From positions 63,901-127,900 of the forward strand of contig DYGA01000003.1 in assembly GCA_020724865.1 (NCBI GenBank): a stretch of 64,000 nt of DNA, written 5' to 3'. The position numbers were made by a program, and so were the translations under genes. Numbering within the stretch: the first letter of the stretch is position 1; every line of letters begins with the position of its first letter. This document shows, in pieces, positions 7,548 to 63,615 of the stretch. The notes beneath the pieces were generated by a model. The model saw only the letters and a list, made by a program, of their open reading frames with translations. It searched no databases and was not told where the DNA came from. The DNA is from Candidatus Paceibacter sp. GTDB taxonomy: Bacteria; Patescibacteriota; Patescibacteriia; S139-126.

Positions 7548-8729
7548 ATGAAAATATTAATTGCCACTGATAATTATTATCCAAATGTTAACGGTGCCTC
7601 GTATTTTGCTCAAAGATTGGCTCGTGAATTGCAGGATCGTCATCATAAAGTTCTTGTGTTAGCGCCCGGACAGTCTATAAAAAGCGGTTATTTTACTCAT
7701 AAAGGGGTGAGGGTATTTGGCGTAAGATCTATTCCAATTATAAAAAAAATTCAGTTTCGGCAGGCAGTACCTTTTTCACAATTAACTATTTGGCCAATAT
7801 TAAAAGATTTTAAACCTGATATTATTCATGTGCAAGATCATTTTTCTTTGGGACATTCCGCTGCATATTTTGGTCGGTATAACAATATCCCCGTGATTGG
7901 AACTAATCATTTTATGCCAGAAAATTTAACTCATTATCTTCATGTCGGTTCCACAATAGAAAAAAAAGTAAATAGATTATTTTGGCAATATTTTTTGGCA
8001 ATTTACCAACGTTTAGATGCAGTTACCGTACCAACTCAAGCTGCGGCTGATTTATTGCGTAGTATTGGTTTTAGTAAGGAAATTAAAGTAATTTCCAACG
8101 GTATTGATTTGCACAAATTTAGCCCCAAAGAAGATGATTATGCTTTACGAAAAAAATACCATATCCCCAACGGAAAAATTTTATTGTATACCGGACGAAT
8201 TGATAAAGAAAAAAATTTGGATACAGTTATTAAAGCATTAGCTAAGTTACCGAGTGATTTTTCGATTCATTTTGTAGCAATTGGCCAGGGAATGTATCAA
8301 AACAATTTACAATTACTTATCAATAAATTAGGTGTGGCGGGAAAAGTTACCTTCACAGGCTTTGTGCCAGATGAGGATTTTCCTTATTTGTTGGCAACCG
8401 CTTATTGTTTTATTTCTCCAGGCATTGCTGAATTACAAAGTATTGCTACTATGGAAGCTATGGCCAATGCTTTGCCTATATTGGCAGCAAATGCCGTGGC
8501 TTTACCTGAGTTAGTGCACAATGATATTAATGGATTTTTGTTTGAGCCTTATGATGAAATTTCTTTGGCAAATTATATTAAAAAAATTTTTACAAATGAA
8601 CAATTACATGATCGATTGGCTGAAGGTAGTTTGCAAATTATTAAAACGCACGATATGCATCAAGTGATAACCCAATTTGAAAAATTATATGAATTCGTAA
8701 TACGGAAAAAAAATAAATTTAATCAATAA
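7548..8729 (+). CDS. Family 4 (GT-B) glycosyltransferase
   Basis: C-terminal EX7E-type motif AELQSIATMEAMANALPILAANAVALPELVHNDINGFLFEP, typical of GT4 retaining transferases. Confidence 0.8.
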   Translation: MKILIATDNYYPNVNGASYFAQRLARELQDRHHKVLVLAPGQSIKSGYFTHKGVRVFGVRSIPIIKKIQFRQAVPFSQLTIWPILKDFKPDIIHVQDHFSLGHSAAYFGRYNNIPVIGTNHFMPENLTHYLHVGSTIEKKVNRLFWQYFLAIYQRLDAVTVPTQAAADLLRSIGFSKEIKVISNGIDLHKFSPKEDDYALRKKYHIPNGKILLYTGRIDKEKNLDTVIKALAKLPSDFSIHFVAIGQGMYQNNLQLLINKLGVAGKVTFTGFVPDEDFPYLLATAYCFISPGIAELQSIATMEAMANALPILAANAVALPELVHNDINGFLFEPYDEISLANYIKKIFTNEQLHDRLAEGSLQIIKTHDMHQVITQFEKLYEFVIRKKNKFNQ

Positions 8730-8792
8730 AATTTTATTTCTGATTATTGGTTTTAATAAACTTAAATTTTTTTAAGATAATAAGGTTATAAC

Positions 8793-8813
8793 TCAAATAT
8801 TTAATATATTTGA
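8793..8813. promoter_or_regulatory. Perfect 21-bp palindrome (TCAAATAT-TTAAT-ATATTTGA) abutting a TTGACA hexamer, a candidate operator
   Basis: 8-bp inverted arms with a 5-bp spacer, directly followed by TTGACA at 8817-8822, upstream of the 8901 gene. Confidence 0.4.
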
Positions 8814-8900
8814 ATGTTGACAGATTAAAAATACTGGTTTAATTTAAATAATATTCTACCTTAACAATTTAATATTCATCAATTTATCAGGAGGTTCTAA

Positions 8901-9380
8901 ATGAACAAAAAAAAATTAATTCCGTCTGTCTCGATCGAAACAGTTTATAATTTCATTCAGAGGAAAACTCCCTGCTGCCAGTTGGAAAACGGGCAAATCA
9001 AGTGTTCGGCTTCTTTTAGCCATCACCGGTATTGTTATGATGTATTTATAAAAAATCATCAGCAAGATTTTTCAATCATCTTTATGGACGGGGAAAAGAT
9101 AAAAACTTCAGCTGAAATATTGGCTGAAGCAGGAATTTTTTTTGCAGATTTAATTTCAGCAAACAATATTATCCAAAACTCAAACTGTGTTCAAGTGAAA
9201 GTTCCGGCACAATTCATTTTATCTGTTATTGAAAAATTAAATATATATCGTCCTCAAAATGACGAAACGATTTTGTTGCCAGAAGATTTTACTGATTTTT
9301 CTCAAGATAAAAAATTGATTAATAAAAAATGTTTAGAACTGGATGATGATTTTGATGAAGATTATAATATAGTATTATAG
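8901..9380 (+). CDS. Hypothetical protein (159 aa, Cys/His-containing N-terminal half, acidic C-terminus)
   Basis: Strong SD (caGGAGGttctaaATG), a rarity in this window. Local GC is higher than the surroundings. No recognisable family. Confidence 0.5.
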   Translation: MNKKKLIPSVSIETVYNFIQRKTPCCQLENGQIKCSASFSHHRYCYDVFIKNHQQDFSIIFMDGEKIKTSAEILAEAGIFFADLISANNIIQNSNCVQVKVPAQFILSVIEKLNIYRPQNDETILLPEDFTDFSQDKKLINKKCLELDDDFDEDYNIVL

Positions 9381-9382
9381 TA

Positions 9383-9410
9383 AAAATCCCGCAAAAATTT
9401 GCGGGATTAA
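9383..9410 (+). terminator. Hairpin terminator (aaatcccgc ... gcgggatt)
   Basis: GC-rich inverted repeat 3 nt after the stop of the 8901 gene. The T-run is weak. Confidence 0.45.
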
Positions 9411-9476
9411 TATTGAAGCATATTTGAAAATATAAATTTTTAAAATTAATTTTTTTTAACAAAAAAAGGAGTAGAA

Positions 9477-9737
9477 ATGACGCATATTAAATTTATAGCA
9501 GAAAACGGGGACCAATATATATTTATTGGTAAAAATAAAAAGGCCATACTAGATGATACTAAAGGTGGAACTGAATTTGGTGGCGAAAAATTCATAGATA
9601 CAAAAGAAGTATCTTTAAAGGAAGTTATTCATTTAAAAAATTATAACAAAGCCGCAGCGGCAATTATTTCCGGATCACCATGTTATCTGATAACTATTAT
9701 TTCTTCAAAAAATAAAAAACAAAGCGACTCAAATTGA
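9477..9737 (+). CDS. Hypothetical small protein (86 aa)
   Basis: Strong SD aaaAGGAGtagaaATG. The gene ends inside a strong terminator hairpin. Confidence 0.45.
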   Translation: MTHIKFIAENGDQYIFIGKNKKAILDDTKGGTEFGGEKFIDTKEVSLKEVIHLKNYNKAAAAIISGSPCYLITIISSKNKKQSDSN

Positions 9738-9750
9738 GTCGCTTTTATTT
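9721..9750 (+). terminator. Rho-independent terminator (gcgactc-aaatt-gagtcgc plus TTTTATTT)
   Basis: 7-bp GC-rich stem followed by a T-run. The stop codon of the 9477 gene lies in the loop. Confidence 0.7.
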
Positions 9751-9825
9751 ATTGCCAAATAAATAGTATTATGTCAAGATATTGGAAAAGTTATTTAAAA
9801 TTATATAATAAAAAGGAGGACAAAT

Positions 9826-10743
9826 ATGCAAATTAATTCACGAAAAAAATGTGAGATCGTTGACATAATCACCCCGAAAAAGATTGTTTTAAATGGTCTT
9901 TGGTTTGGCCCTATTCAAGCTAAGGTGGGTTTTATCTTTATCCCCGGTTTAGGTGGTAATGTATTTTCTAAATTGGATTTGTTAGCTTGGTTAGCTGGTT
10001 CCCATTTCTCAGTTTTAAGTTTAAATACCAGGGGGCATGATAAGGTTGCAAAAATACAAAAGATAGATAAACGTACTATGAAAGGTTATTACTCCATCAA
10101 TGGGGGTAGTGCTCATGAAGTTTTTACCGAATCTAAAGATGATATAGCTGGGGCAGTCAAATTTTTGCTATCCAGAAAAATAAAGAACATTTATCTAATC
10201 GGTCATTCTACTGGATGTCAGAAATCAGTTTATTATTTAGCTAAAGGAAAATTTAAAGAAAAGGTTCAAGGAGCAATTTTGCTTTGTCCGATAAGTGATT
10301 ATGCATCCGCTGTCCAGGAATATGGAAAAAAGAAATTAAAGAAAGTTGCCAGTATTGCGCGGCAAATGATCAGGACAGGCAGGGGTCACAATATTTTGCC
10401 TTTAAATTTATGGCCTGGTTATGTTGATGCCCAAAGGTTTTTAAGTTTATATACATCAAATAGTCCTGAAGAAATTTTTTCTTATATTACCCCAGATAAA
10501 AAGCCTTATACTTTATTGAAAGTAAAACAACCATTGTTGATTATTTTAGCTGGACAAGATCAATATCAAGATCGTCCAGCCAAACAAATTGCCAACTGGT
10601 TTGATAAATATATTAATCATCCCAGAAGTCAAATTAAAATTTTTACCAAAGCTAATCATTCCTTGGTAGGTTATGAAAAATTAATTGCTAAATTAAGTCA
10701 TTATTGGATTCAAAAAGGAGGGAGAAATGTCAAAAATAAATAA
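9826..10743 (+). CDS. Alpha/beta-hydrolase (serine hydrolase, GHSTG nucleophile elbow)
   Basis: Strong SD aaAGGAGGacaaatATG. Motifs FIPGLGG (oxyanion), LIGHSTGCQ (nucleophile elbow) and a C-terminal ANHSL His motif. Confidence 0.65.
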   Translation: MQINSRKKCEIVDIITPKKIVLNGLWFGPIQAKVGFIFIPGLGGNVFSKLDLLAWLAGSHFSVLSLNTRGHDKVAKIQKIDKRTMKGYYSINGGSAHEVFTESKDDIAGAVKFLLSRKIKNIYLIGHSTGCQKSVYYLAKGKFKEKVQGAILLCPISDYASAVQEYGKKKLKKVASIARQMIRTGRGHNILPLNLWPGYVDAQRFLSLYTSNSPEEIFSYITPDKKPYTLLKVKQPLLIILAGQDQYQDRPAKQIANWFDKYINHPRSQIKIFTKANHSLVGYEKLIAKLSHYWIQKGGRNVKNK

Positions 10744-10861
10744 TCTTAATGAAGGATTGAAAGATTTAGAAATTTGTGATTGTGATTGTCATCGATCCGG
10801 TTTTGATATTAAACATTTTGTTCCATGTTGTAGTGTTTGTTCTTTTTGTAAAAAAGGATAA
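10727..10861 (+). CDS. Cys-rich 44-aa peptide (MSKINNLNEGLKDLEICDCDCHRSGFDIKHFVPCCSVCSFCKKG), a candidate metal-binding or RiPP-like precursor
   Basis: Absent from the ORF track because it is below 60 aa. Strong SD aaaAGGAGGgagaaATG embedded in the 3' end of the hydrolase gene. Seven Cys and two His in 44 aa. Followed by a terminator at 10925-10952. Confidence 0.35.
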   Translation: MSKINNLNEGLKDLEICDCDCHRSGFDIKHFVPCCSVCSFCKKG

Positions 10862-10924
10862 AAGGTGGAGCAGAATCACACGAAGCAAAATGTCCTTCTA
10901 ATCCTAAAAATAAAAATAATAAAA

Positions 10925-10952
10925 AAGCACCTTAAAAAAAAGGTGCTTTTAT
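10925..10952 (+). terminator. Rho-independent terminator (aagcacct-taaaaaaa-aggtgctt plus TTTT)
   Basis: 8-bp stem followed by a T-run. Closes the islet transcription unit. Confidence 0.65.
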
Positions 10953-10992
10953 ATTGATTTTTTTTCTAAAATAAGATAAAATTAAACTAATT

Positions 10993-12609
10993 ATGGCCAA
11001 TGATTTAGATAAAAAAGTTTATACTTTATTTTTACCCCTATTGGAGTTAATTAGGGTTTTTGAACGTACAGCCCAAGTTCAGTTACCACCGGAGGATTCT
11101 CGGGTTAAATTAAACAATGTTGTATCCAAAATATCTTTATTTTATGAAAAATTGAGAAATGCAGTTGATTATGCAGATGAACATTTATTGCGTGAACGAG
11201 CTATTTTACGCAATTTGAAAAGAACAATGACCTTACATAATCGTAAAGGGGAAATAATTGCTAAACCGCTAGTGTATGATTTGATTAGATCTGGTTATTT
11301 GCCGAATGATCAGCTGAATGAGTCAGTTATAATTGAGACTGAAAAAATAATTGATCGTTTTATTATTTTAAATAATTATATTGGCAGTTATAAGGAAAAA
11401 GAAGAAAAGGTAGAAATTTTCAATTTTTTGTTACCACAGTTAGCCATAGAAATTGATGATTTATTAGTCAATAAAGATAGAGATAATGCTTTGGTTGAGT
11501 GTATGTATCAGGTTGTCAAAAAAGATGTGGTAGTTACTGATAACCGATATAGTGATTTAGATAAAAAAATTCAGTTATATATTGCTATTTTGAAATCACT
11601 GATTAAAGCCGATCAGGCAAGAATTGGGTTTTATTTGTGGCAGTTATATGTACCGCATTGGCAACAGGCTCAAGAAAAAGAATTAATATTGATAGCCCAA
11701 AATATATCTGATATTATTTTGAAAATAAAAAGACAACTAGAACATCCGTTAAATAATTTATACATCAGAATTTTACGTAAGTATAATGTCTTATTTCTGG
11801 TCATCAGGGATATCATTAGTGAGTATCCAAATCAGGCTTTGGAAATTTGGAAACAGCCAGCTTTATTGGAAGAAAAAATACGTCAAGCAGCCAAGAAAAG
11901 ATATAAGATTTCGCGCGCTAAACTCACTCGGAGTATAATCAGAAGTATTATTTACCTTTTTATTACCAAAATGATATTGGCTGTTTTATTAGAATTTCCG
12001 TTAGACTTAATGCTAGAGAAAAATATTAACTACATGACAATTGCGATCAATGTAATGTTTCCGCCCTTGTTAATGTTTGTAATTGGTTTATTCATTAGAG
12101 TGCCAGGTATTAAAAATACCGATAAAATTGTTCAAGGTATCAAAGAAATTTCTTACCAGTTTGAAGAAAGAAATGTGATTAGAAAAATAAAAAAACCACT
12201 TAAACGTTCGGTGCTGATGACTAGAACATTCAAAATAATTTATAGCATTATATTTTTCTTTACTTTCAGTTTAATCATATATGGTTTGGATAAACTGGGT
12301 TTTAATTTAGCTAGCATGATTATTTTTATCTTTTTTTTAAGTTTAGTATCATTTTTTTCCATTCGCATATCACAATCAGCCAGAGAATTACATATTATAG
12401 AAAAAAAAGAGAATTTATTTACTTTTATTAAAGATTTTTTTTCTTTACCAATTTTAGAAGCCGGACGCTGGCTGTCCGACAAATTAAATAAAATAAATTT
12501 TTTTGTAGTATTTTTCGATTTTATAATTGAAGCCCCTTTCAAAGTTATAGTTGATTCAATTGAAGAATGGATGGGTTATGTGAGGGAGAAAAAAGAGGAT
12601 ATTTATTAA
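10993..12609 (+). CDS. Hypothetical membrane protein (538 aa): ~330-aa soluble N-terminal domain plus a C-terminal multi-TM region
   Basis: Hydrophobic segments cluster from aa 330 onward. No recognisable family. Confidence 0.5.
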   Translation: MANDLDKKVYTLFLPLLELIRVFERTAQVQLPPEDSRVKLNNVVSKISLFYEKLRNAVDYADEHLLRERAILRNLKRTMTLHNRKGEIIAKPLVYDLIRSGYLPNDQLNESVIIETEKIIDRFIILNNYIGSYKEKEEKVEIFNFLLPQLAIEIDDLLVNKDRDNALVECMYQVVKKDVVVTDNRYSDLDKKIQLYIAILKSLIKADQARIGFYLWQLYVPHWQQAQEKELILIAQNISDIILKIKRQLEHPLNNLYIRILRKYNVLFLVIRDIISEYPNQALEIWKQPALLEEKIRQAAKKRYKISRAKLTRSIIRSIIYLFITKMILAVLLEFPLDLMLEKNINYMTIAINVMFPPLLMFVIGLFIRVPGIKNTDKIVQGIKEISYQFEERNVIRKIKKPLKRSVLMTRTFKIIYSIIFFFTFSLIIYGLDKLGFNLASMIIFIFFLSLVSFFSIRISQSARELHIIEKKENLFTFIKDFFSLPILEAGRWLSDKLNKINFFVVFFDFIIEAPFKVIVDSIEEWMGYVREKKEDIY

Positions 12610-12653
12610 TTTTTAATATAAAATTAAAATTTTTTATCAATTTTACAGCAGGA

Positions 12654-12682
12654 TTGACAAAATCCATTTTTTTTGCTATACT
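12654..12682 (+). promoter_or_regulatory. Consensus sigma70-type promoter (TTGACA, 17-nt spacer, TATACT)
   Basis: TTGACA at 12654-12659, a 17-nt spacer, then TATACT at 12677-12682. A second TATAAT at 12705-12710 lies 10 nt before the ATG of the downstream gene. Confidence 0.55.
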
Positions 12683-12720
12683 TATATGTTTACAAATAAT
12701 TTGCTATAATATATATAGAC

Positions 12721-14097
12721 ATGGATAAAGATAATAAAAAATTAGTCAAAAAGAAAAGAAGTAAAAGTTGGCAATGGTTGTGTGTATTATTTGGCATTGG
12801 ATTATTATTATATCCGCAAAGAAAAAAAATTCAAAAAAAAGTTAAGCAACCAATTAACCGTTTTGCTTTAATTTTAAATGAAGAGTGTAAATATATTCCG
12901 GAAAAAATGGCATCTATGAGAACCCGTATTAAAAATTATTTACAAGATTTTTTTATTCCTTCATCTCGTAACGACCATCAACCTCACGGTCTGTCTACGC
13001 GGTTACTCAAATTTTATGCCGTTATTTTAATATTAATAAAATTGTTGACAGTTGGCTTTTTATTTTTTACATACCCTAGTCCAGCCGTTTTATCACAAAA
13101 AATTTCCCAAGAAATATTTGAATTGACCAATAATTCACGTAAGGCTGAAAATATCAATGAACTAAGTTGGAATACTGAACTTACCAGAGCCGCTCAGGCT
13201 AAAGCTGAAGATATGATAAAAAATAACTATTTTGCTCATATTGGACCTGATGGTAAACAACCTTGGGAATGGATAAATAAAGGCGATTATTATTTTCTCT
13301 ACATGGGAGAAAATTTGGCCATGGATTTTTCTTCGGCCAAGATTGCTCATAGCGCCTTTCAACAGTCTCCCACACATTGGAAAAATATCATGAATCCAAA
13401 ATATAAAGATATGGGAGTGGGTGTGGCAGTAGGTAAAATAAATGATCGAGATACAATAGTTTTGGTAGAATTTTTTGGCGCTCAGAAAGAGTTATCACCA
13501 ATAGTGCCAGTTGCTCAGGCGGCTGTAGATACATCAGTCGCAGCTGCTACAACACCAACTACCAACAACCAAGATATTTTAGTTACTGCACCGATTGCAT
13601 CTGTTGAACAGCCAGTAGTTACTAATACAACTCCAACGGTAGTTAGCCAAGAAGAAATAAACAAGCAAATTTCAGAAACAGCGTTAAAACCAGAAGAAGA
13701 AGTCAAACAAAATAAAGAGGAAAATATTATACCCGAATCTATTCCAGAACCAGAAAAAGTGAATGAAGAATTACAAGCTCCTGTTCCTCAACAGTTGGTT
13801 GCGGAAATAATGATTCCTGAACAAGTTGATATTTCTGATCAAGCCGTTTTAGTATCTAGTATCGAAGAATCAACCCAGAAAAGCTTAGTTGAATATGTAG
13901 TTATTTTTAGTCGTTATGCATTGTTGGTATTTTTAGTTGTTTTATTGGTAATGTTACTGATAAATATTTTAGTCAAACCTCATATTCAACACAGTAAGGT
14001 AATATTACAAACCTTAGGGGTTATTTTACTAGTATCAACATTACTTTTAACCAGATTCCATTTTATTGAAGAAATTCAACATATCCTTATATTTTAA
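12721..14097 (+). CDS. Membrane-anchored CAP/SCP (PR-1-like, YkwD-type) domain protein with a Thr/Pro/Val-rich linker and C-terminal TM helix
   Basis: CAP motifs YFAHIGPDGKQPWEWI...HWKNIMNPKYKDMGVGVA. A low-complexity T/P/V/Q-rich region spans aa 260-330. Hydrophobic helices lie at both ends. Confidence 0.65.
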   Translation: MDKDNKKLVKKKRSKSWQWLCVLFGIGLLLYPQRKKIQKKVKQPINRFALILNEECKYIPEKMASMRTRIKNYLQDFFIPSSRNDHQPHGLSTRLLKFYAVILILIKLLTVGFLFFTYPSPAVLSQKISQEIFELTNNSRKAENINELSWNTELTRAAQAKAEDMIKNNYFAHIGPDGKQPWEWINKGDYYFLYMGENLAMDFSSAKIAHSAFQQSPTHWKNIMNPKYKDMGVGVAVGKINDRDTIVLVEFFGAQKELSPIVPVAQAAVDTSVAAATTPTTNNQDILVTAPIASVEQPVVTNTTPTVVSQEEINKQISETALKPEEEVKQNKEENIIPESIPEPEKVNEELQAPVPQQLVAEIMIPEQVDISDQAVLVSSIEESTQKSLVEYVVIFSRYALLVFLVVLLVMLLINILVKPHIQHSKVILQTLGVILLVSTLLLTRFHFIEEIQHILIF

Positions 14098-14206: not shown

Positions 14207-15205
14207 ATGATTGGAGAAAAAAACATAATTGTTACTGGAGGAGCGGGGTTTATTGGATCACATTTATGTGATGAATTGGTCAAACAGAAAGCCAATGTGA
14301 TCTGTATAGACAATTTTATTAGCGGAACTAGGGGTAATATTGAATTTTTACTACAGCAACCAAATTTTAGATTTGTCAATCATGACGTTTCTGAACCAAT
14401 TGATTTAGAATCTTTACCAGAATTAAAAAATTTTCATATTGGCGCCAAAGGCATACAGGAAATATATCATTTGGCTTGCCCTATTGCCTATAAAGATTAT
14501 AGTGAACTACCATTGGAAACGATTATTACCAATTCTCATGGGACTAGAAATATGTTGGAGTTAGCTGTTAAATATAAAGCCAAGTTTTTGTTAGCATCAT
14601 CTTCAGCTATTTACGGCGAACCCTTAAAAAATATTAAGTATTTTAAAGAAGATTATTGGGGATATGTAAATACTATTGGAGCGAGAAGTTCTTATAATGA
14701 AGGTAAACGTTTTGCTGAAAGTTTAACTTATAATTATGGTTTATATCATAATCTCAATACTAAAATTATCAGAATATTCCAAACTTATGGTCCACGTATG
14801 AGATTTAATGATGCCCGTATGATTCCCGATATAATTCGGTCTGCTTTAGCAGGTGAAGAGCTTGTAATTTATGGTGAAGAAGGTGTTACTACTTCGTTTA
14901 TGTATATTTCTGACTTGATAGATGGTTTATTGAAAGCCATGGTTGCTGAAGGTAATATTGTAGTAAATATGGGGCACCCTAAAGAAATTATGGTTGAAGA
15001 AGCAGCTCGTATCATCAAAGAATTAACTGAATCAAATTCACAAATTGTTTACCGTGAGTCACCACAATATATTTTAAAACATGGTTTGCCTGATATAACT
15101 AAAGCCAAAGAAATTTTAGGTTGGTTCCCATTGGTTGATTTAAAATCAGGTTTAAGTAAAACAATTGAATATATGAAAGCCCAACAAGGTTTGTTGGGAA
15201 TATAG
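14207..15205 (+). CDS. NAD-dependent sugar-nucleotide epimerase/dehydratase, UDP-glucuronate decarboxylase (UXS)-like
   Basis: Rossmann motif VTGGAGFIGSHL. DNFISGTRGNIE, YNEGKR (YxxxK) and IFQTYGPRMRFNDARMI align with UXS/ArnA-type decarboxylases. Confidence 0.7.
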   Translation: MIGEKNIIVTGGAGFIGSHLCDELVKQKANVICIDNFISGTRGNIEFLLQQPNFRFVNHDVSEPIDLESLPELKNFHIGAKGIQEIYHLACPIAYKDYSELPLETIITNSHGTRNMLELAVKYKAKFLLASSSAIYGEPLKNIKYFKEDYWGYVNTIGARSSYNEGKRFAESLTYNYGLYHNLNTKIIRIFQTYGPRMRFNDARMIPDIIRSALAGEELVIYGEEGVTTSFMYISDLIDGLLKAMVAEGNIVVNMGHPKEIMVEEAARIIKELTESNSQIVYRESPQYILKHGLPDITKAKEILGWFPLVDLKSGLSKTIEYMKAQQGLLGI

Positions 15206-15272
15206 TCCATTGAATATTTCAATTTTTTATGAGTGGATTTTTTTTAAATATATTTTAAATGTATCATAGTAT

Positions 15273-16190
15273 ATGAATATTTTAGTAACCGGTGGCGCAG
15301 GTTTTATTGGTTCGCATTTGGTTGACGAATTGATAAATAAAAAAAATAAAGTAGCTGTCATTGATAATCTTTCTACCGGCAGAAAAGATAATTTATCTAA
15401 GCAGGTTGATTTTTTTAAAATCGATATAGTAGATAAAAAAAATATAGAAAAAATTTTCAATAAATTTAAACCCGATGTTGTTTATCATTTAGCTGCTCAG
15501 AAAGATGTCAGATATTCTGTTAAAAATCCTGACATTGATGCTCAAATCAATATTTTAGGTTCATTAAATTTGATAAAACTATCTCTGAAATATCAGATAA
15601 AGAAATTTATTTTTGTATCCAGTGGTGGGGCCATTTATGATGAAAATGAAAATTTGCCCTTTACTGAAAATTCTAAAGTAAAACCTTTGTCGCCTTACGG
15701 TTTAGCTAAGTATACCATCGATCAGTATTTAGAGATTTTTCAAAACACAAATAATTTTCCCTTTGTTAGTTTAAGATTGGCAAATGTTTATGGTCCCAGG
15801 CAAGATCCATTGGGTGAAGCTGGAGTGGTGGCAATTTTTTTTAATACATTAAAAAATAATAAACAGCCACATTTAAATGGCGGGGGAAAACAAACTAGAG
15901 ATTTTGTCTATGTAAAGGATGTGGTGAATGCTTTATGGCAAGTAAGCCAATTTCCAGTTTTTGGCATTTATAATATTGGCACAGGCATTCCCACCAGTAT
16001 TGCTGAACTATTAAAATTGCAGCAATCTTTATGTGGAACAAATATTGAAGCTATTTTTAGTCCAGCTCAACCCGGTGAAGTAATGAGAAATGCTTTATCT
16101 TATCAAAAAGCCAAAAAAGATTTTTTTTGGCAACCGCAGTATGATTTAACTAAGGGTTTAATTGAGACAGTTAATTGGTTTAAAAATTAA
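15273..16190 (+). CDS. NAD-dependent epimerase (UDP-glucose 4-epimerase GalE-like SDR)
   Basis: VTGGAGFIGSHLVDEL, DNLSTG and the YGLAK catalytic motif. Confidence 0.75.
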   Translation: MNILVTGGAGFIGSHLVDELINKKNKVAVIDNLSTGRKDNLSKQVDFFKIDIVDKKNIEKIFNKFKPDVVYHLAAQKDVRYSVKNPDIDAQINILGSLNLIKLSLKYQIKKFIFVSSGGAIYDENENLPFTENSKVKPLSPYGLAKYTIDQYLEIFQNTNNFPFVSLRLANVYGPRQDPLGEAGVVAIFFNTLKNNKQPHLNGGGKQTRDFVYVKDVVNALWQVSQFPVFGIYNIGTGIPTSIAELLKLQQSLCGTNIEAIFSPAQPGEVMRNALSYQKAKKDFFWQPQYDLTKGLIETVNWFKN

Positions 16191-16195
16191 TTTTT

Positions 16196-16861
16196 ATGAA
16201 AATATATATTGTTATACCCGCATTCAATGAGGCAGATCATATTACTAAAGTTATTACTGATTTGAAAAATCACGGATACGAAAATATAGTCGTTGTTGAT
16301 GACGGATCAACCGATGGAACTTTTGAACTCGCCAAAAAAAATCAAGTGAAAGTTTTGCAGCACGTGGTTAATCGCGGTATGGGAGCAGCTTTACAAACCG
16401 GAAATGATTTTGCTTTAAAACAGGGGGCTGAAGTGATAGTTCATTTTGATGCTGATGGTCAAATGTTGGCTAGTGATATAAAAAATATGGTTGATCCGAT
16501 AATTAACGAAAAAATTGATATTACATTGGGCAGCAGATTTTTAAGTTCTAAAGGTGAAATGCCTTTGTCTAAAAAATATATTATCCATCCTTTAGCCAAA
16601 GTTATAAATTATTTTTTTACTAGGTTATGGTTGTCTGATGTTCACAACGGATTTCGTGCGCTGTCTGCTCAGGCAGCAAAAAAAATTATAATTACCCAAG
16701 ATCGGATGGCTCATAATACAGAAATAGTTGAAAAAATTAAAAAATATCATTTAAAATATCGAGAAGTTCCCGTTACTATTAAATATTATGAATATGGTCA
16801 ATCAATCGGCGGTGGTTTGAAAATATTACGAGATTTATTAATTGGTAAATTAATACGTTAG
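16196..16861 (+). CDS. Family 2 glycosyltransferase (Dpm1/GtrB-like polyprenol-phosphate sugar transferase)
   Basis: IVIPAFNEADHI...VVVDDGSTDGT, the DAD motif, 221 aa. Confidence 0.75.
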   Translation: MKIYIVIPAFNEADHITKVITDLKNHGYENIVVVDDGSTDGTFELAKKNQVKVLQHVVNRGMGAALQTGNDFALKQGAEVIVHFDADGQMLASDIKNMVDPIINEKIDITLGSRFLSSKGEMPLSKKYIIHPLAKVINYFFTRLWLSDVHNGFRALSAQAAKKIIITQDRMAHNTEIVEKIKKYHLKYREVPVTIKYYEYGQSIGGGLKILRDLLIGKLIR

Positions 16862-58339: not shown

Positions 58340-60043
58340 ATGTCTAACCCCAAAAACAATACGGCAAAATTAAGTGCAAAACAAAAGCTTTGGTTAAAAG
58401 CAATTTTTATTATTGTTTTGTTTTTATTTTTTGGTGGGATAGTTTATCCAGTGTTACCTGCCGGCGTACCTGGTAAAACTTGGTTTGATTCGTTTCAACC
58501 AAAATTAGGTCTTGATTTGCAAGGCGGAGCGCATCTGGTTTTTGAAGCAGACACTTCACAGATAAAAGATAGTGACAAAGCTTCAGCTGTTGAAGGTGTG
58601 CGCGATGTGATCGAGCGTAGAGTCAATACATTTGGTATAGCTGAACCTTTAATCCAAACCAATAAAGAAGGAGATAATTATCGCGTTATTGTTGAGCTAG
58701 CTGGTGTATTTGATATTAGTGAAGCCATAAAACAAATAGGAGAAACACCTTTACTTGAATTTAAAGAACAAAATCCCAATTTTACTGGTGAAATAAAATT
58801 AACCCCTGAACAGCAACAAGTATTAGACCAGTTAAATAATCAAGCCAAAGAAAAAGCCTGGGAGATTTTAAATAAAATAAAGGCAGGAGAAGATTTTGCC
58901 CAATTGGCAAAAGAAAATTCCCAAGATCCAGGAAGTAAAGATCAGGGCGGTAATATTAGTTTTGTTAAAAGAGGCGTTTTAGTTCCGGAATATGAACAAG
59001 TTATTTTTGATCAATTAGCAGATGGTGAAATTGCTCCTACTCCCATAGAAACACAATTTGGTTATCATATTATTCAAAAATTGTCGGAGAAAGGTTTTGG
59101 TGATGCTAGAGAAGTTGAATCTCGACATATTTTAATTGCTAAAGTATCTCCTCAAGATTTATTTGCTTCAGAGGATCAATGGATAAATACAGAACTGTCT
59201 GGAAAACATTTAGATCGTGCTCAGTTAGTTTTTAATCAAAATACCAACGCTCCTGAAGTTAGTTTGACTTTCAATGAAGAAGGTAAAAGATTGTTTGCCG
59301 AAATAACCAAAAAAAATCTAAATAAGCCAGTGGCGATATTTTTGGACGGTCAGCCTATATCAATACCTACTGTGCAGAATGAAATTACTGAAGGACAAGC
59401 TATAATCAGTGGCGATTTTACAATTTCAGAAGCAAAACTATTAGCTCAACGGCTAAATGCTGGCGCTTTACCGGTACCAATTAAATTAGTAACTCAGCAA
59501 ACAGTTGGCCCATCTTTAGGATCTAAAAGTATACAACAAAGTATTTTTGCTGGTATTATCGGTATTGTTGCTGTAGTTTTGTTTATGATTTTATACTATC
59601 GCTTGTTGGGATTATTTGCGGCCCTATCTTTAGGTATGTATGGAATCATAGTGTTTGGATTATTCCAATTTATTCCAGTCACTTTAACTTTAGCTGGTAT
59701 CGCTGGATTTATTTTGTCACTTGGTATGGCGGTTGATGCCAATGTTTTAATTTTTGAAAGGGTTAAAGAAGAATTAAAAAAAGGCGAACCTCTTGATCTC
59801 GCCTTGACCGATGGTTTTAAACGAGCATGGCCATCGATCAGAGATTCAAATTTATCTACTTTGATTACCACCGCAATTTTATTTTGGTTTGGTACTTCAA
59901 TTATTAAAGGTTTTGCTTTAACCCTGAGTATTGGTGTAATAGTCAGTATGTTTAGCGCAATATTTATTACCAAAACATTGCTAGAAATTTTTATGGTCAA
60001 AAAGCTAGAAAAATACAAATGGTTGTTTGGATATTTTAAATAA
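58340..60043 (+). CDS. secD: Protein translocase subunit SecD with a circularly permuted parvulin PPIase domain inserted in the periplasmic P1 region
   Basis: SecD motifs LGLDLQGGAHLVFEAD and RRVNTFGIAEPLIQ, the P1 base ...AIFLDGQPISIPTV...AGALPVPI, and a C-terminal 6-TM bundle. Residues ~145-275 carry a parvulin signature (DFAQLAKENSQDPGSKDQGGNISF...TQFGYHIIQK...SRHILIAKV). Confidence 0.85.
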   Translation: MSNPKNNTAKLSAKQKLWLKAIFIIVLFLFFGGIVYPVLPAGVPGKTWFDSFQPKLGLDLQGGAHLVFEADTSQIKDSDKASAVEGVRDVIERRVNTFGIAEPLIQTNKEGDNYRVIVELAGVFDISEAIKQIGETPLLEFKEQNPNFTGEIKLTPEQQQVLDQLNNQAKEKAWEILNKIKAGEDFAQLAKENSQDPGSKDQGGNISFVKRGVLVPEYEQVIFDQLADGEIAPTPIETQFGYHIIQKLSEKGFGDAREVESRHILIAKVSPQDLFASEDQWINTELSGKHLDRAQLVFNQNTNAPEVSLTFNEEGKRLFAEITKKNLNKPVAIFLDGQPISIPTVQNEITEGQAIISGDFTISEAKLLAQRLNAGALPVPIKLVTQQTVGPSLGSKSIQQSIFAGIIGIVAVVLFMILYYRLLGLFAALSLGMYGIIVFGLFQFIPVTLTLAGIAGFILSLGMAVDANVLIFERVKEELKKGEPLDLALTDGFKRAWPSIRDSNLSTLITTAILFWFGTSIIKGFALTLSIGVIVSMFSAIFITKTLLEIFMVKKLEKYKWLFGYFK

Positions 60044-61482: not shown

Positions 61483-63615
61483 TTGATGTATAAATCAATT
61501 ATGTTGCTTATGAATACAGAAAGTAATTTAAACGAAGAATTTAAGAATCGACTAGAAAAATTGAACGGTTTTAAAAAAGCTGGTTTTAATCCTTACCCAG
61601 AAAGATTTGAAAAAAAACACGAAATTCAAGAGCTACTTGAGTATGCAGAAAATAATCAAATTTTTTCAGCCACGGAAATAAATCGAGAAACCAATGAATT
61701 TGTAACTGCGGGCAGAATTATGACTTTGCGTGAACATGGCAAAATTACTTTTGCCAATCTCCAAGACTTTACAGGCAAAATACAAATATCTTTTTCTCAA
61801 AATATTTTAGGAAGTGATTTGTATTCACTAATTAAATTTTTTGATTTGGGTGATTTTATCGGAGTGACGGGAAAAATTTTTAAAACTAACAAGGGCGAAA
61901 TAACTTTAATGGTTTATGATTTTAGTTTTTTAGGCAAAGCATTTCGTCAGTTACCAGAAAAATTTCATGGTCTTAAAGATAGAGAAATTTTGTACCGACA
62001 AAGATATTTAGATCTTTTAGTCAACCCAGATACTAAGGAAAGATTTATCCAAAGGTCAAATATAATTAATTTTTTACGAAATTATTTATTGAAAAATAAG
62101 TTTTTTGAAGTAGAAACACCTATTTTAACTCCTACAGCTTCCGGTGCTTTAGCCAAACCATTTATAACTCACCATAACGCTTTGGATACTGATTTTTATT
62201 TAAGAATCGCCCCAGAAACATATTTAAAAAGACTGATTGTTGGTGGTTATGAAAAAGTTTTTGAATTTGCCAAATGTTTTCGTAACGAAGGGATAGACCC
62301 ATCACATCTCCAAGAGTTTACAATGCTTGAATATTATGTTGCTTATTGGAATTGGGAAGATAATAAAAATTTTACTGAAAAGTTGGTGTCCGACTTGGTT
62401 TTTTATATTTTTGGAAAATATAAAATCAATTTATTTGGTAAAGAGTTAGATTTTACTCCGCCATTTACCGTTATATCTATGCGCGATGTTATTTGGGAAA
62501 ATTCAAAAATAGATATAGACGATGTTAAAGATAAAGCAGATTTACTATTAAAAATCAAACAAGCCGGTATTAATTTAGAAAATACAGAAAAATTAGGTTT
62601 GGGTAATTTAATCGATTCTCTGTATAAAAAAGTTGCTCGAGATAAAATTATAAAACCAACATTTTTAATCAATCATCCCATTAGTCTTTCTCCTTTAGCC
62701 CGTGCTAATGATTTTAATAAAAATATTGCCGACAGGTTTCAATTAATTGTTAATGGTTGGGAGATAGTAAATGCTTATTCTGAGTTAGTAGATCCACTGG
62801 AACAGAAACAAAGGTTAATTGAGCAAAACGAACTAAAAAATAAAGGCGATGAAGAAGCTATGATGATGGATGATGATTATATCAAGGCTATGGAATACGG
62901 CATGCCACCTATATCAGGGTGGGGGATGGGTATTGATAGGATTTGTACTTTATTTAGTGAACAAGAAAATTTAAAAGATGTAGTTTTATTTCCATTACTT
63001 AAAAATAAAAATGATTTGCCTACAAATGTATTAAATGAACAAATATCTGATCCGGGTATAAGTTATGAAGAGGCAGTGAAGTTATTGAACAAATATATAC
63101 CGCCAACCGATCCTTTATATAAACATTCTTTAGCCGTTGAATTTATAATGCGTTCATTAGCTGACAAATTAAAACAAAATCAAACAGTTTGGGGTATTGC
63201 CGGTTTATTACATGATTTAGATTATTTAGAAACAAAAGAACAACCGCATTTACATGGCATAAAATCAGAAAAAATCCTTCAAGATCACGGTTTACATCCA
63301 GAAATAATTTATGCCATTAAAGCTCATAATTATTTACATGAATTATCTTTACATACTCTACTAGCAAAAGCCCTATATTCCGTTGAAGAATTAGCTGGTT
63401 TAATTACAGCTTGTGCATTAGTACAACCTGACAAATCTTTATCATCTGTAACCCTAGATTCGTTGTTAAAAAAATTTAAACAAAAGTCATTTGCTTCTGG
63501 CGTCAACAGGTCAATTATTCTAAAATCAGAAGAATATTTAAATATGAGTTTAAAGGAAGTTATGTCAATAGCCTTGCAAGCTATGCAAAATAACAGTAAA
63601 AAATTGGGTTTATAG
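61483..63615 (+). CDS. lysS: Lysyl-tRNA synthetase (class II) fused to a C-terminal YqeK-like HD phosphohydrolase domain
   Basis: LysRS motifs: the anticodon-binding OB domain, FRNEG (motif 2 region) and GMGIDRICTLF (motif 3). A ~190-aa extension carries HD signatures H-SLAVEF, GLLHDLDY, HLHG, KAHNY. The likely true start is at 61501 or 61510 (TATAAA box 7 nt upstream); the track start at 61483 is probably too early. Confidence 0.85.
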   Translation: MMYKSIMLLMNTESNLNEEFKNRLEKLNGFKKAGFNPYPERFEKKHEIQELLEYAENNQIFSATEINRETNEFVTAGRIMTLREHGKITFANLQDFTGKIQISFSQNILGSDLYSLIKFFDLGDFIGVTGKIFKTNKGEITLMVYDFSFLGKAFRQLPEKFHGLKDREILYRQRYLDLLVNPDTKERFIQRSNIINFLRNYLLKNKFFEVETPILTPTASGALAKPFITHHNALDTDFYLRIAPETYLKRLIVGGYEKVFEFAKCFRNEGIDPSHLQEFTMLEYYVAYWNWEDNKNFTEKLVSDLVFYIFGKYKINLFGKELDFTPPFTVISMRDVIWENSKIDIDDVKDKADLLLKIKQAGINLENTEKLGLGNLIDSLYKKVARDKIIKPTFLINHPISLSPLARANDFNKNIADRFQLIVNGWEIVNAYSELVDPLEQKQRLIEQNELKNKGDEEAMMMDDDYIKAMEYGMPPISGWGMGIDRICTLFSEQENLKDVVLFPLLKNKNDLPTNVLNEQISDPGISYEEAVKLLNKYIPPTDPLYKHSLAVEFIMRSLADKLKQNQTVWGIAGLLHDLDYLETKEQPHLHGIKSEKILQDHGLHPEIIYAIKAHNYLHELSLHTLLAKALYSVEELAGLITACALVQPDKSLSSVTLDSLLKKFKQKSFASGVNRSIILKSEEYLNMSLKEVMSIALQAMQNNSKKLGL

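Follow-up and report, generated by a model that had tools for sequence, protein, structure and literature searches.

A 44-codon cysteine-rich reading frame of Candidatus Paceibacter as a probable frameshift-truncated allele of a small zinc-finger-like gene

A stretch of 64,000 nucleotides from Candidatus Paceibacter sp. (contig DYGA01000003.1, positions 63,901 to 127,900 of the forward strand; hereafter, the window, with coordinates counted from its first nucleotide) contains, on its forward strand, an open reading frame (ORF) of 44 codons that runs from ATG at 10727 to TAA at 10859-10861. Its product, MSKINNLNEGLKDLEICDCDCHRSGFDIKHFVPCCSVCSFCKKG, contains seven Cys and two His residues, exactly as described in an initial annotation made from the sequence alone, which took the ORF for a whole gene. 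Almost certainly, the 44-codon ORF (10727-10861) is instead the truncated allele of a longer gene of ~68 codons. Relative to intact relatives, the reading frame is shifted at an A6 tract (10850-10855); the stop codon at 10859 results from this frameshift, which had been missed, and the remainder of the gene lies in the -1 frame, at 10852-10935. The allele is, we consider, probably fixed, recent and function-impairing, and the gene zinc-finger-like; the loss of function is what we infer from the comparisons described below.

A frameshift relative to intact relatives

The -1 frame opens just past the last Cys codon of the ORF. It begins with KRIKGGAESHEAKC and encodes, up to its stop codon, KRIKGGAESHEAKCPSNPKNKNNKKAP (10852-10935). 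The two parts were joined to yield a "repaired" query of 69 amino acids (aa), which was searched against 5.8 billion protein clusters and matched two proteins, P0001 (77 aa, E = 8e-27) and P0002 (53 aa, E = 1e-23). P0001 (...CSICSFCKKRIKGGAESHELMCSDNPKNKIKRLK) contains both parts in a single ORF, at 78% identity and 91% query coverage, and the stranded 3′ part is collinear with both P0001 and P0003. The syntenic loci of three relatives (L004, L009, and L010) likewise encode both parts as a single ORF of 68-77 aa.

DNA alignments located the lesion. The intact lineages (L004, L009, and L010) read TGT-A7-G, whereas the window and L001-L003 read TGT-A6-G and run into TAA two codons on. L008, which is 99.1% identical to L004, contains A8, which shifts the frame the opposite way so that it reads CKKKNKRWS before a stop. 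(L008, CAZINS010000004.1, is labelled "uncultured Gammaproteobacteria bacterium", yet its locus is 99% identical to L004 and syntenic with the window; the label is probably wrong.) In L005-L007 and L013, the site reads AAAAAGA, which is in frame there, and a 1-nt deletion is found 20 nt downstream (GCAG-GTCA); the L005/L013 clade also carries a Cys-to-Tyr replacement at an invariant Cys. Thus, the frame of the small gene has been disrupted three times independently within the genus, by A6 in the window, by A8 in L008, and by the deletion in the L005/L013 clade.

The identical 44-aa product was found on eight contigs from independent assemblies (an NCBI metagenome-assembled genome [MAG], JGI, and several Logan runs); among the eight A6 contigs is one from a strain differing at 0.13% of positions. 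No A7 version of the window-type allele was present among ~15 billion proteins, where the repaired query returned only P0001 and P0002. None of the other genes in the 64 kb looks frameshifted. An alternative genetic code was considered and rejected: the relevant stop is TAA, and translation table 11 leaves every long ORF intact.

Selection was estimated by the Nei-Gojobori method. Between the window and L004, the Cys-rich core differs by 11 synonymous and four non-synonymous substitutions, with all Cys codons kept (omega, the ratio of non-synonymous to synonymous rates, 0.04). Conservation of the frame and of the Cys codons in relatives, which the initial annotation had put forward as its own test, was thus borne out. 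For the tail, read in the -1 frame, omega was 0.21 (window versus L004) and 0.07 (L005 versus L004). Because omega is low in the core as well as in the tail, both parts were coding in the common ancestor, where they were under purifying selection, and the frameshift is recent.

The window and L005 both contain a disrupted gene; between them, the 5′ part shows two synonymous and four non-synonymous differences (omega ∼0.2-0.4, compared with 0.05-0.32 for the neighbouring genes), which is suggestive of relaxed constraint, the counts (four to six substitutions) being too small for significance. The distribution of indels is a stronger signal of relaxation. All coding-region indels fall in the small gene, both in the 12.9 kb compared between the window and L005 and in the 8.2 kb compared between L004 and L008, where A7 versus A8 is the only one. 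The other A/T runs of at least six bases in the neighbouring genes, 80 in the first comparison and 56 in the second, contain no indel at all. Frameshifts are tolerated in the small gene and nowhere else nearby, and constraint on it is relaxed in this genus.

The protein family and its predicted fold

The intact gene belongs to an undescribed family, which was delimited by searching 1.84 billion representatives exhaustively with P0001 (HMMER, E ≤ 1e-3). The search returned 138 cluster representatives, mostly of 55-85 aa, with matches spanning both sides of the frameshift site; with clusters defined at 50% identity, the family comprises at least 138 of them. Its signature is CxCxCH-x6-12-HxxP/A-CC-xx-C-xx-C-x10-11-H-xxx-C/H, and the ancestral version of the window gene is CxCxCH-x7-HxxPCC-xx-C-xx-C-x10-H-xxx-C. 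Eleven positions are invariant in an alignment of 82 members (A4; in P0001 numbering C26, C28, C30, H31, H39, C43, C44, C47, C50, H61, and C65), an invariance that is partly circular because these members were picked for the full motif. An independent check comes from the unselected representatives having the N-terminal cluster and CxxC, 126 of 129 of which contain H-x3-4-C/H, usually 10-11 residues on. The consensus also keeps G, P, R, and I residues that are not ligands (CxCxCHxxG...HxxPCC...RI).

Seven residues of the window ORF (C17, C19, C21, H22, H30, C34, and C35) align with the invariant N-terminal ligand columns (C-x-C-x-C-H ... H-x2-P/A-C-C). The CxxC knuckle is kept as well, as C38 and C41, two residues after CC, in columns that are at least 90% conserved. 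The H-x3-C/H motif is missing from the 44-aa product and is encoded only in the -1 frame (SHEAKC, 10876-10893).

When the ORF, the repaired protein, and the 82 members were compared with Pfam, NCBIfam, PHROGs, and PADLOC, no family model matched and only scattered single-member hits were obtained; the family exists without any curated model. Literature searches for the motif, or for small Cys-rich proteins of Patescibacteria and jumbo phages, yielded nothing relevant. The conserved region behaves like a domain. It occurs as tandem repeats (for example, in P0014, P0026, P0036, and P0038) and is fused to the N-terminus of a DHH/DHHA1 phosphoesterase-like protein (P0138, 338 aa) and to that of a cREC_REC receiver protein (P0083, 255 aa).

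Members of the family are found in Patescibacteria and on viral contigs, P0037 being encoded on a phage-like contig of 442 kb. A degenerate DNA pattern retrieved 32 stretches from IMG/VR, in which 19 ORFs, many of them on contigs of 100-450 kb, fit the protein motif, a count that includes one CH-repeat false positive and some near-duplicates. The false positive, a low-complexity (Cys-His)n repeat ORF (L040/L044) of the giant-virus MAG IMGVR GVMAG-S-1041352-47, does not belong to the family. On the very large viral contigs (L014 and IMG/VR L017-L046), which are probably those of jumbo phages, members sit in stretches of small hypothetical genes. A tblastn search of GenBank phages with P0001 and P0037 gave no match. 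An all-against-all BLAST comparison of 322 neighbouring ORFs around ∼20 family loci did not reveal a recurring partner. The tandem two-domain member P0014 (L011, 6001-6435; Candidatus Buchananbacteria, JAUSEE010000036.1) is encoded between a truB-sua5 fusion and uvrC; uvrA and uvrB are no more than 6 kb away. This neighbourhood may be coincidence or, given the weak UBZ-like matches described below, a hint at DNA repair.

Using the family alignment, AlphaFold2 predicted P0001 with a per-residue confidence (predicted local distance difference test; pLDDT) of 84-94 for residues 21-70, in the form of a hairpin around C47/C50 and a helix with H61 and C65 on it. The two strands (44-46 and 53-55) and the helix (59-64) reached 90-94, and the C-x2-C...H-x3-C spacing fits a C2HC beta-beta-alpha finger. 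Compared with solved structures, the family profile produced weak matches over ∼25-35 residues (2l7x, E = 6e-4; the UBZ of RAD18, 5vf0, E = 5e-3), and single members matched zf-C2HC_2 (1e-5) and Sgf11; fold searches revealed no significant structural neighbour. By appearance, the C-terminal part is a C2HC beta-beta-alpha zinc finger. The intact protein probably binds Zn and would be a small multi-zinc module that binds protein or nucleic acid.

The C-terminal half resembles fingers of the UBZ4, zf-C2HC_2, and Sgf11 types (RAD18 UBZ, 5vf0, 2mre; PF13913, PF08209), with which it shares the order C-x2-C, 10-11 residues, H-x3-C (H in some members) and, in the AlphaFold2 model, the hairpin at CxxC followed by the helix that carries H and C. 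It differs from them in several respects: the matches are weak, cover ∼25-35 residues, and come without a significant fold match; the finger of the family is fused to a unique N-terminal CxCxCH...HxxPCC cluster, the last Cys of which is two residues from the first Cys of the finger; and the family is one of bacteria and phages, which lack a ubiquitin system. The His/Cys half is, furthermore, out of frame in the window allele. The best match of the family profile to a solved structure (E = 6e-4) is the dual CCHC finger of the Gn tail of Crimean-Congo haemorrhagic fever virus (2l7x), which aligns through H..C...CPxC-x10-H-xxx-C and packs two adjacent metal sites into one small unit, as the family would. 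This match is borderline and only at the sequence level, the family has CxCxCH where the viral protein has a second CCHC finger, and the two are linked neither by evolution nor by function.

The initial annotation had suggested a metallopeptide, either metallothionein-like or a zinc ribbon. A small Cys/His protein that probably binds metal agrees with the data, and zinc ribbon or finger was the nearest of the options offered. The resemblance to the metallothioneins SmtA and BmtA, which are also small, have some His ligands, and contain CxC and CxxC motifs (16% Cys), does not go further. No Pfam hits connect the two, and the family has invariant residues including His, hydrophobic and aromatic positions, a predicted hairpin and helix, and members with repeats and fusions.

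The locus and its surroundings

The ORF is preceded by the Shine-Dalgarno (SD) sequence AAGGAGGG (10715-10722, forward strand), at a spacing of 5 nt to the ATG. Since GGAGG is found within 20 nt upstream of only two of the 52 long ORFs of the window, such a strong SD is unusual there, as had been pointed out initially. Among the 220 six-frame ORFs of 30-70 aa, the 44-codon ORF is the sole one with more than five Cys; the long ORFs of the window, the GC content of which is 31%, have a Cys fraction of 0.48%. Paralogs of the small gene were not found elsewhere in the window.

Upstream, on the same strand, lies the gene for a DUF1749 alpha/beta-hydrolase (9826-10743; 305 aa; PF08538, E = 1.9e-23), which is syntenic in L001-L005 and L008, has an omega of 0.18 versus L005, and overlaps the 44-codon ORF by 17 nt at its 3′ end. 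A candidate sigma-70-like promoter, TTGGAA-16-TATAAT (9782-9809, forward strand), identified by consensus match only (10 of 12 positions), precedes the pair and follows a terminator at 9721-9745. An intrinsic terminator hairpin, flanked on either side by a run of T or A, reported initially and confirmed here at 10923-10950, ends the bicistronic unit and scores as a terminator on both strands. The ancestral stop codon of the small gene, TAA at 10933-10935, sits in its loop, and the last codons form the 5′ stem; covariation is seen in the stem, which is GCACC/GGTGC in the window and GCGCC/GGCGC in L004. Because of the 17-nt overlap, the strong SD, and the terminator loop that holds the ancestral stop, the small gene appears to be co-transcribed with, and translationally coupled to, the hydrolase gene.

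The order of genes is GT4, a 159-aa ORF, an 86-aa ORF, the DUF1749 hydrolase, the small gene, a 538-aa membrane protein, and a CAP-domain protein, and it is the same around the small gene in relatives. The 159-aa (8901-9380) and 86-aa (9477-9737) ORFs have no Pfam match, are syntenic in all related loci, and show omega values of 0.27-0.32; the 86-aa gene has its own terminator, the one at 9721-9745. A GTG-initiated, Lys-rich ORF of 31 aa, placed at 10871-10966 by the initial annotation, actually spans 10865-10957, encodes 30 aa, and is in the same frame as the Cys-rich ORF. It is not conserved: it stops after seven codons in L004, L008, and L009 and after 11 in L005, and L010 has no GTG.

The window is part of a bacterial chromosome, as its genes include those for SecA, SecD, LysS, PyrG, MurD, and PilB; over its whole length, Rfam detected three tRNAs only. 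The window belongs to Patescibacteria: among named organisms, the closest SecA relatives, at ∼60-62% identity, come from the Patescibacteria group, Falkowbacteria, Kerfeldbacteria, and Buchananbacteria, and other SecA relatives, at 82-89% identity, are encoded on contigs of up to 717 kb. Some further features were noted. Two epimerase genes and a GT2 gene at 14207-16861 are near-identical to those of L005 (synonymous divergence, dS, 0.005-0.015, versus 0.09-0.17 for 7548-14097), so this glycan-synthesis cluster looks like the result of recent recombination or a sweep between the window and L005 lineages. The lysine--tRNA ligase ORF at 61483-63615 comprises 710 aa, of which LysRS models cover residues 17-508, leaving a C-terminal extension of ∼200 aa. 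In SecD (58340-60043; 567 aa), residues ∼165-255 match peptidyl-prolyl isomerases of the PpiC/PrsA type, and such a domain may be inserted in the periplasmic loop.

Readings of the short allele and their implications

The following course of events accounts for the allele. The ancestral gene encoded a cytoplasmic Cys/His-rich protein of ∼68 aa, of which the present ORF represents the 5′ two-thirds. One A was then lost from the coding A7 tract, leaving A6 at 10850-10855; because of this loss, ribosomes stop after 44 residues, and the 27 codons for the His-x3-Cys helix are left stranded in the -1 frame. If the intact protein is, as its model and motifs suggest, one compact unit around two or three Zn ions with a C-terminal C2HC beta-beta-alpha finger, the 44-aa allele would have lost two of the four finger ligands. 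Most likely, the gene, on which constraint is relaxed in the genus, has recently lost its function or been impaired in it.

The 44-aa product stops three residues past the CxxC knuckle, without the helix that supplies the other two ligands. Predicted by AlphaFold2 with an equivalent alignment, it had a mean pLDDT of 56.6, with every residue below 70, and formed no secondary structure; for the same residues, pLDDT dropped from 84-94 to 52-62 once the tail was removed. This suggests one interlocked fold rather than two independent modules, although the comparison is weak because AlphaFold2 models no Zn and penalizes very short chains. On balance, we lean slightly towards the truncation abolishing or crippling the ancestral function.

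Besides this weakness of the fold comparison, several other observations weigh against a loss of function. Four family members (P0034, P0113, P0115, and P0126) keep the N-terminal CxCxCH...HxxxCC cluster without the C2HC finger, so the N-terminal cluster may work alone or be a separable module. The 44-aa part retains its SD, its start codon, and all seven of its Cys codons, and its omega versus L005, estimated from four to six substitutions, is not significantly different from that of the neighbouring genes; a useful product could, therefore, still come from this allele. The occurrence of A6, A7, and A8 at one site also fits reversible switching.

The first of the alternatives built on these observations is that the 44-aa product is a functional, stand-alone metallopeptide, maintained as such through its N-terminal CxCxCH...HxxPCC cluster. 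The strong SD, the ATG, and the Cys codons agree with it, as do the fixation of the allele in several samples and the finger-less sub-group. However, the His/Cys half is retained in 126 of the 129 representatives with CxxC, and the collapse of pLDDT without the tail suggests a single interlocked fold. The finger-less members do not simply end, but have another conserved C-terminal segment (..TY.KY..DG.ID..) in place of the finger. The fixation says little on selection because the frameshift is very recent and the tail still readable. We, thus, regard a maintained metallopeptide as unlikely, if the best of the alternatives.

Less likely again is phase variation, in which the poly(A) tract is a contingency switch, with A7 as the ON state that yields the full-length protein and A6 or A8 as the OFF or truncated states, in a reversible fashion. 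The glpK tract of Mycobacterium tuberculosis is a run of seven C, and tracts as short as 7 nt, glpK being the case in point, have been reported to act as switches. Variation in glpK is described as a rapidly reversible, genetically encoded mechanism of drug tolerance (10.1101/717272), and coding homopolymeric tracts have been argued to be a general regulatory device (PMC2831843). Like these loci, the small gene shows a frame-switching polymorphism of tract length among close relatives (A6 in the window and L001-L003, A7 in L004, L009, and L010, and A8 in L008), and no coding difference of this kind other than A7 versus A8 separates the 99.1% identical L004 and L008. Unlike them, it shows no ON allele within a lineage: all eight window-type contigs contain A6, and ∼15 billion proteins contain no A7 form. 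The A8 of L008 is known from a single co-assembly. The tract is also ordinary for a genome of 31% GC, the 64 kb containing 125 runs of A6, 52 of A7, and 37 of A8, with ∼90 other runs at least as long. In the sister clade of L005, the disruption is at a non-repetitive site and an invariant Cys is lost, which argues for decay rather than switching there. Still less probable is an elaborate version of the switch, in which an ON/OFF poly(A) tract in episymbiotic Patescibacteria would control a phage-type multi-zinc protein, from a family not described before, with a new, interlocked N-terminal Cys5His2 cluster that acts in phage-host or host-symbiont conflict.

Recoding, by which the A6 allele would still yield the full-length protein through -1 ribosomal frameshifting or through RNA polymerase slippage that adds an A, appears improbable. 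The -1-frame tail is still intact, and the two frames can be joined only in AAA AAA GGA, a stretch that is bounded by TAA codons in the -1 frame (10849) and in the 0 frame (10859) and holds an A_AAA tetramer; low-level compensatory frameshifting at indels is known (PMC5009743). However, the 0-frame reads U_AAA_AAA_G and contains no canonical X_XXZ_ZZN heptamer. In Escherichia coli, Z_ZZN tetramers without a downstream stimulator do not rise above background (0.147% versus 0.112%), and, among the six tetramers with a response to a pseudoknot, that of A_AAA is the weakest (PMC4066793). No stimulator was found here, the folding of 10856-10925 resulting in a minimum free energy of -7.1 kcal/mol (z = -1.0), with 35 of 200 shuffled sequences at least as good. 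Neither is the two-frame layout conserved, since L004, L009, and L010 have one ORF, L008 is shifted the opposite way, and L005 is disrupted at another site. The endosymbionts Buchnera and Blochmannia offer a parallel, as in their AT-rich, reduced genomes, too, single-base indels in coding A runs split conserved genes, with partial rescue by transcriptional slippage (slippage in them is reviewed in PMC5009743). The bacterial transcriptional slippage described there concerns runs of nine A or T (PMC5009743), whereas the tract here is only A6, so hardly any rescue by slippage is to be expected.

A sequencing or assembly error in the homopolymer, the true tract being A7 and the gene intact, might be suspected as a single base separates the window from its intact relatives. 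It is very improbable because the same 44-aa product occurs on eight independent contigs, from different samples and pipelines (NCBI MAG, JGI, and Logan) and including the 0.13%-diverged strain; moreover, no other gene in the window looks frameshifted, and the lineages agree at 80 other A/T runs of the neighbouring genes.

The least credible reading is the one that the translational coupling of a small Cys-rich ORF to an alpha/beta hydrolase had initially invited, namely a bacteriocin or other ribosomally synthesized and post-translationally modified peptide (RiPP) precursor, or a metallothionein, the hydrolase being its partner in maturation or immunity: a Pfam scan of the neighbours (7548-14097) brought up no radical-SAM, lanthipeptide, YcaO, protease, or ABC-exporter genes, the Cys/His scaffold is conserved over the whole length with no split into leader and variable core, the domain occurs in tandem and in larger proteins such as the DHH/DHHA1 and cREC_REC fusions, metallothionein and RiPP models of Pfam and NCBIfam gave only single-member noise (E ∼0.008-0.01), and only in this genus is the small gene linked to the hydrolase, other members having unrelated neighbours and no recurring neighbour family.

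As an event, the favoured frameshift is ordinary; a homopolymer indel opens no long-standing question. It matters for annotation, as public collections list the 44-aa ORF as a gene, and mining for small ORFs or RiPPs would misread the truncated allele. The more useful result is the family, which is a candidate for a new domain definition and for a metal-bound structure. Its independent disruption in sister lineages shows which genes such reduced genomes tolerate losing, and the disrupted alleles amount to a natural experiment, on a small scale, in whether the C-terminal finger can be dispensed with.

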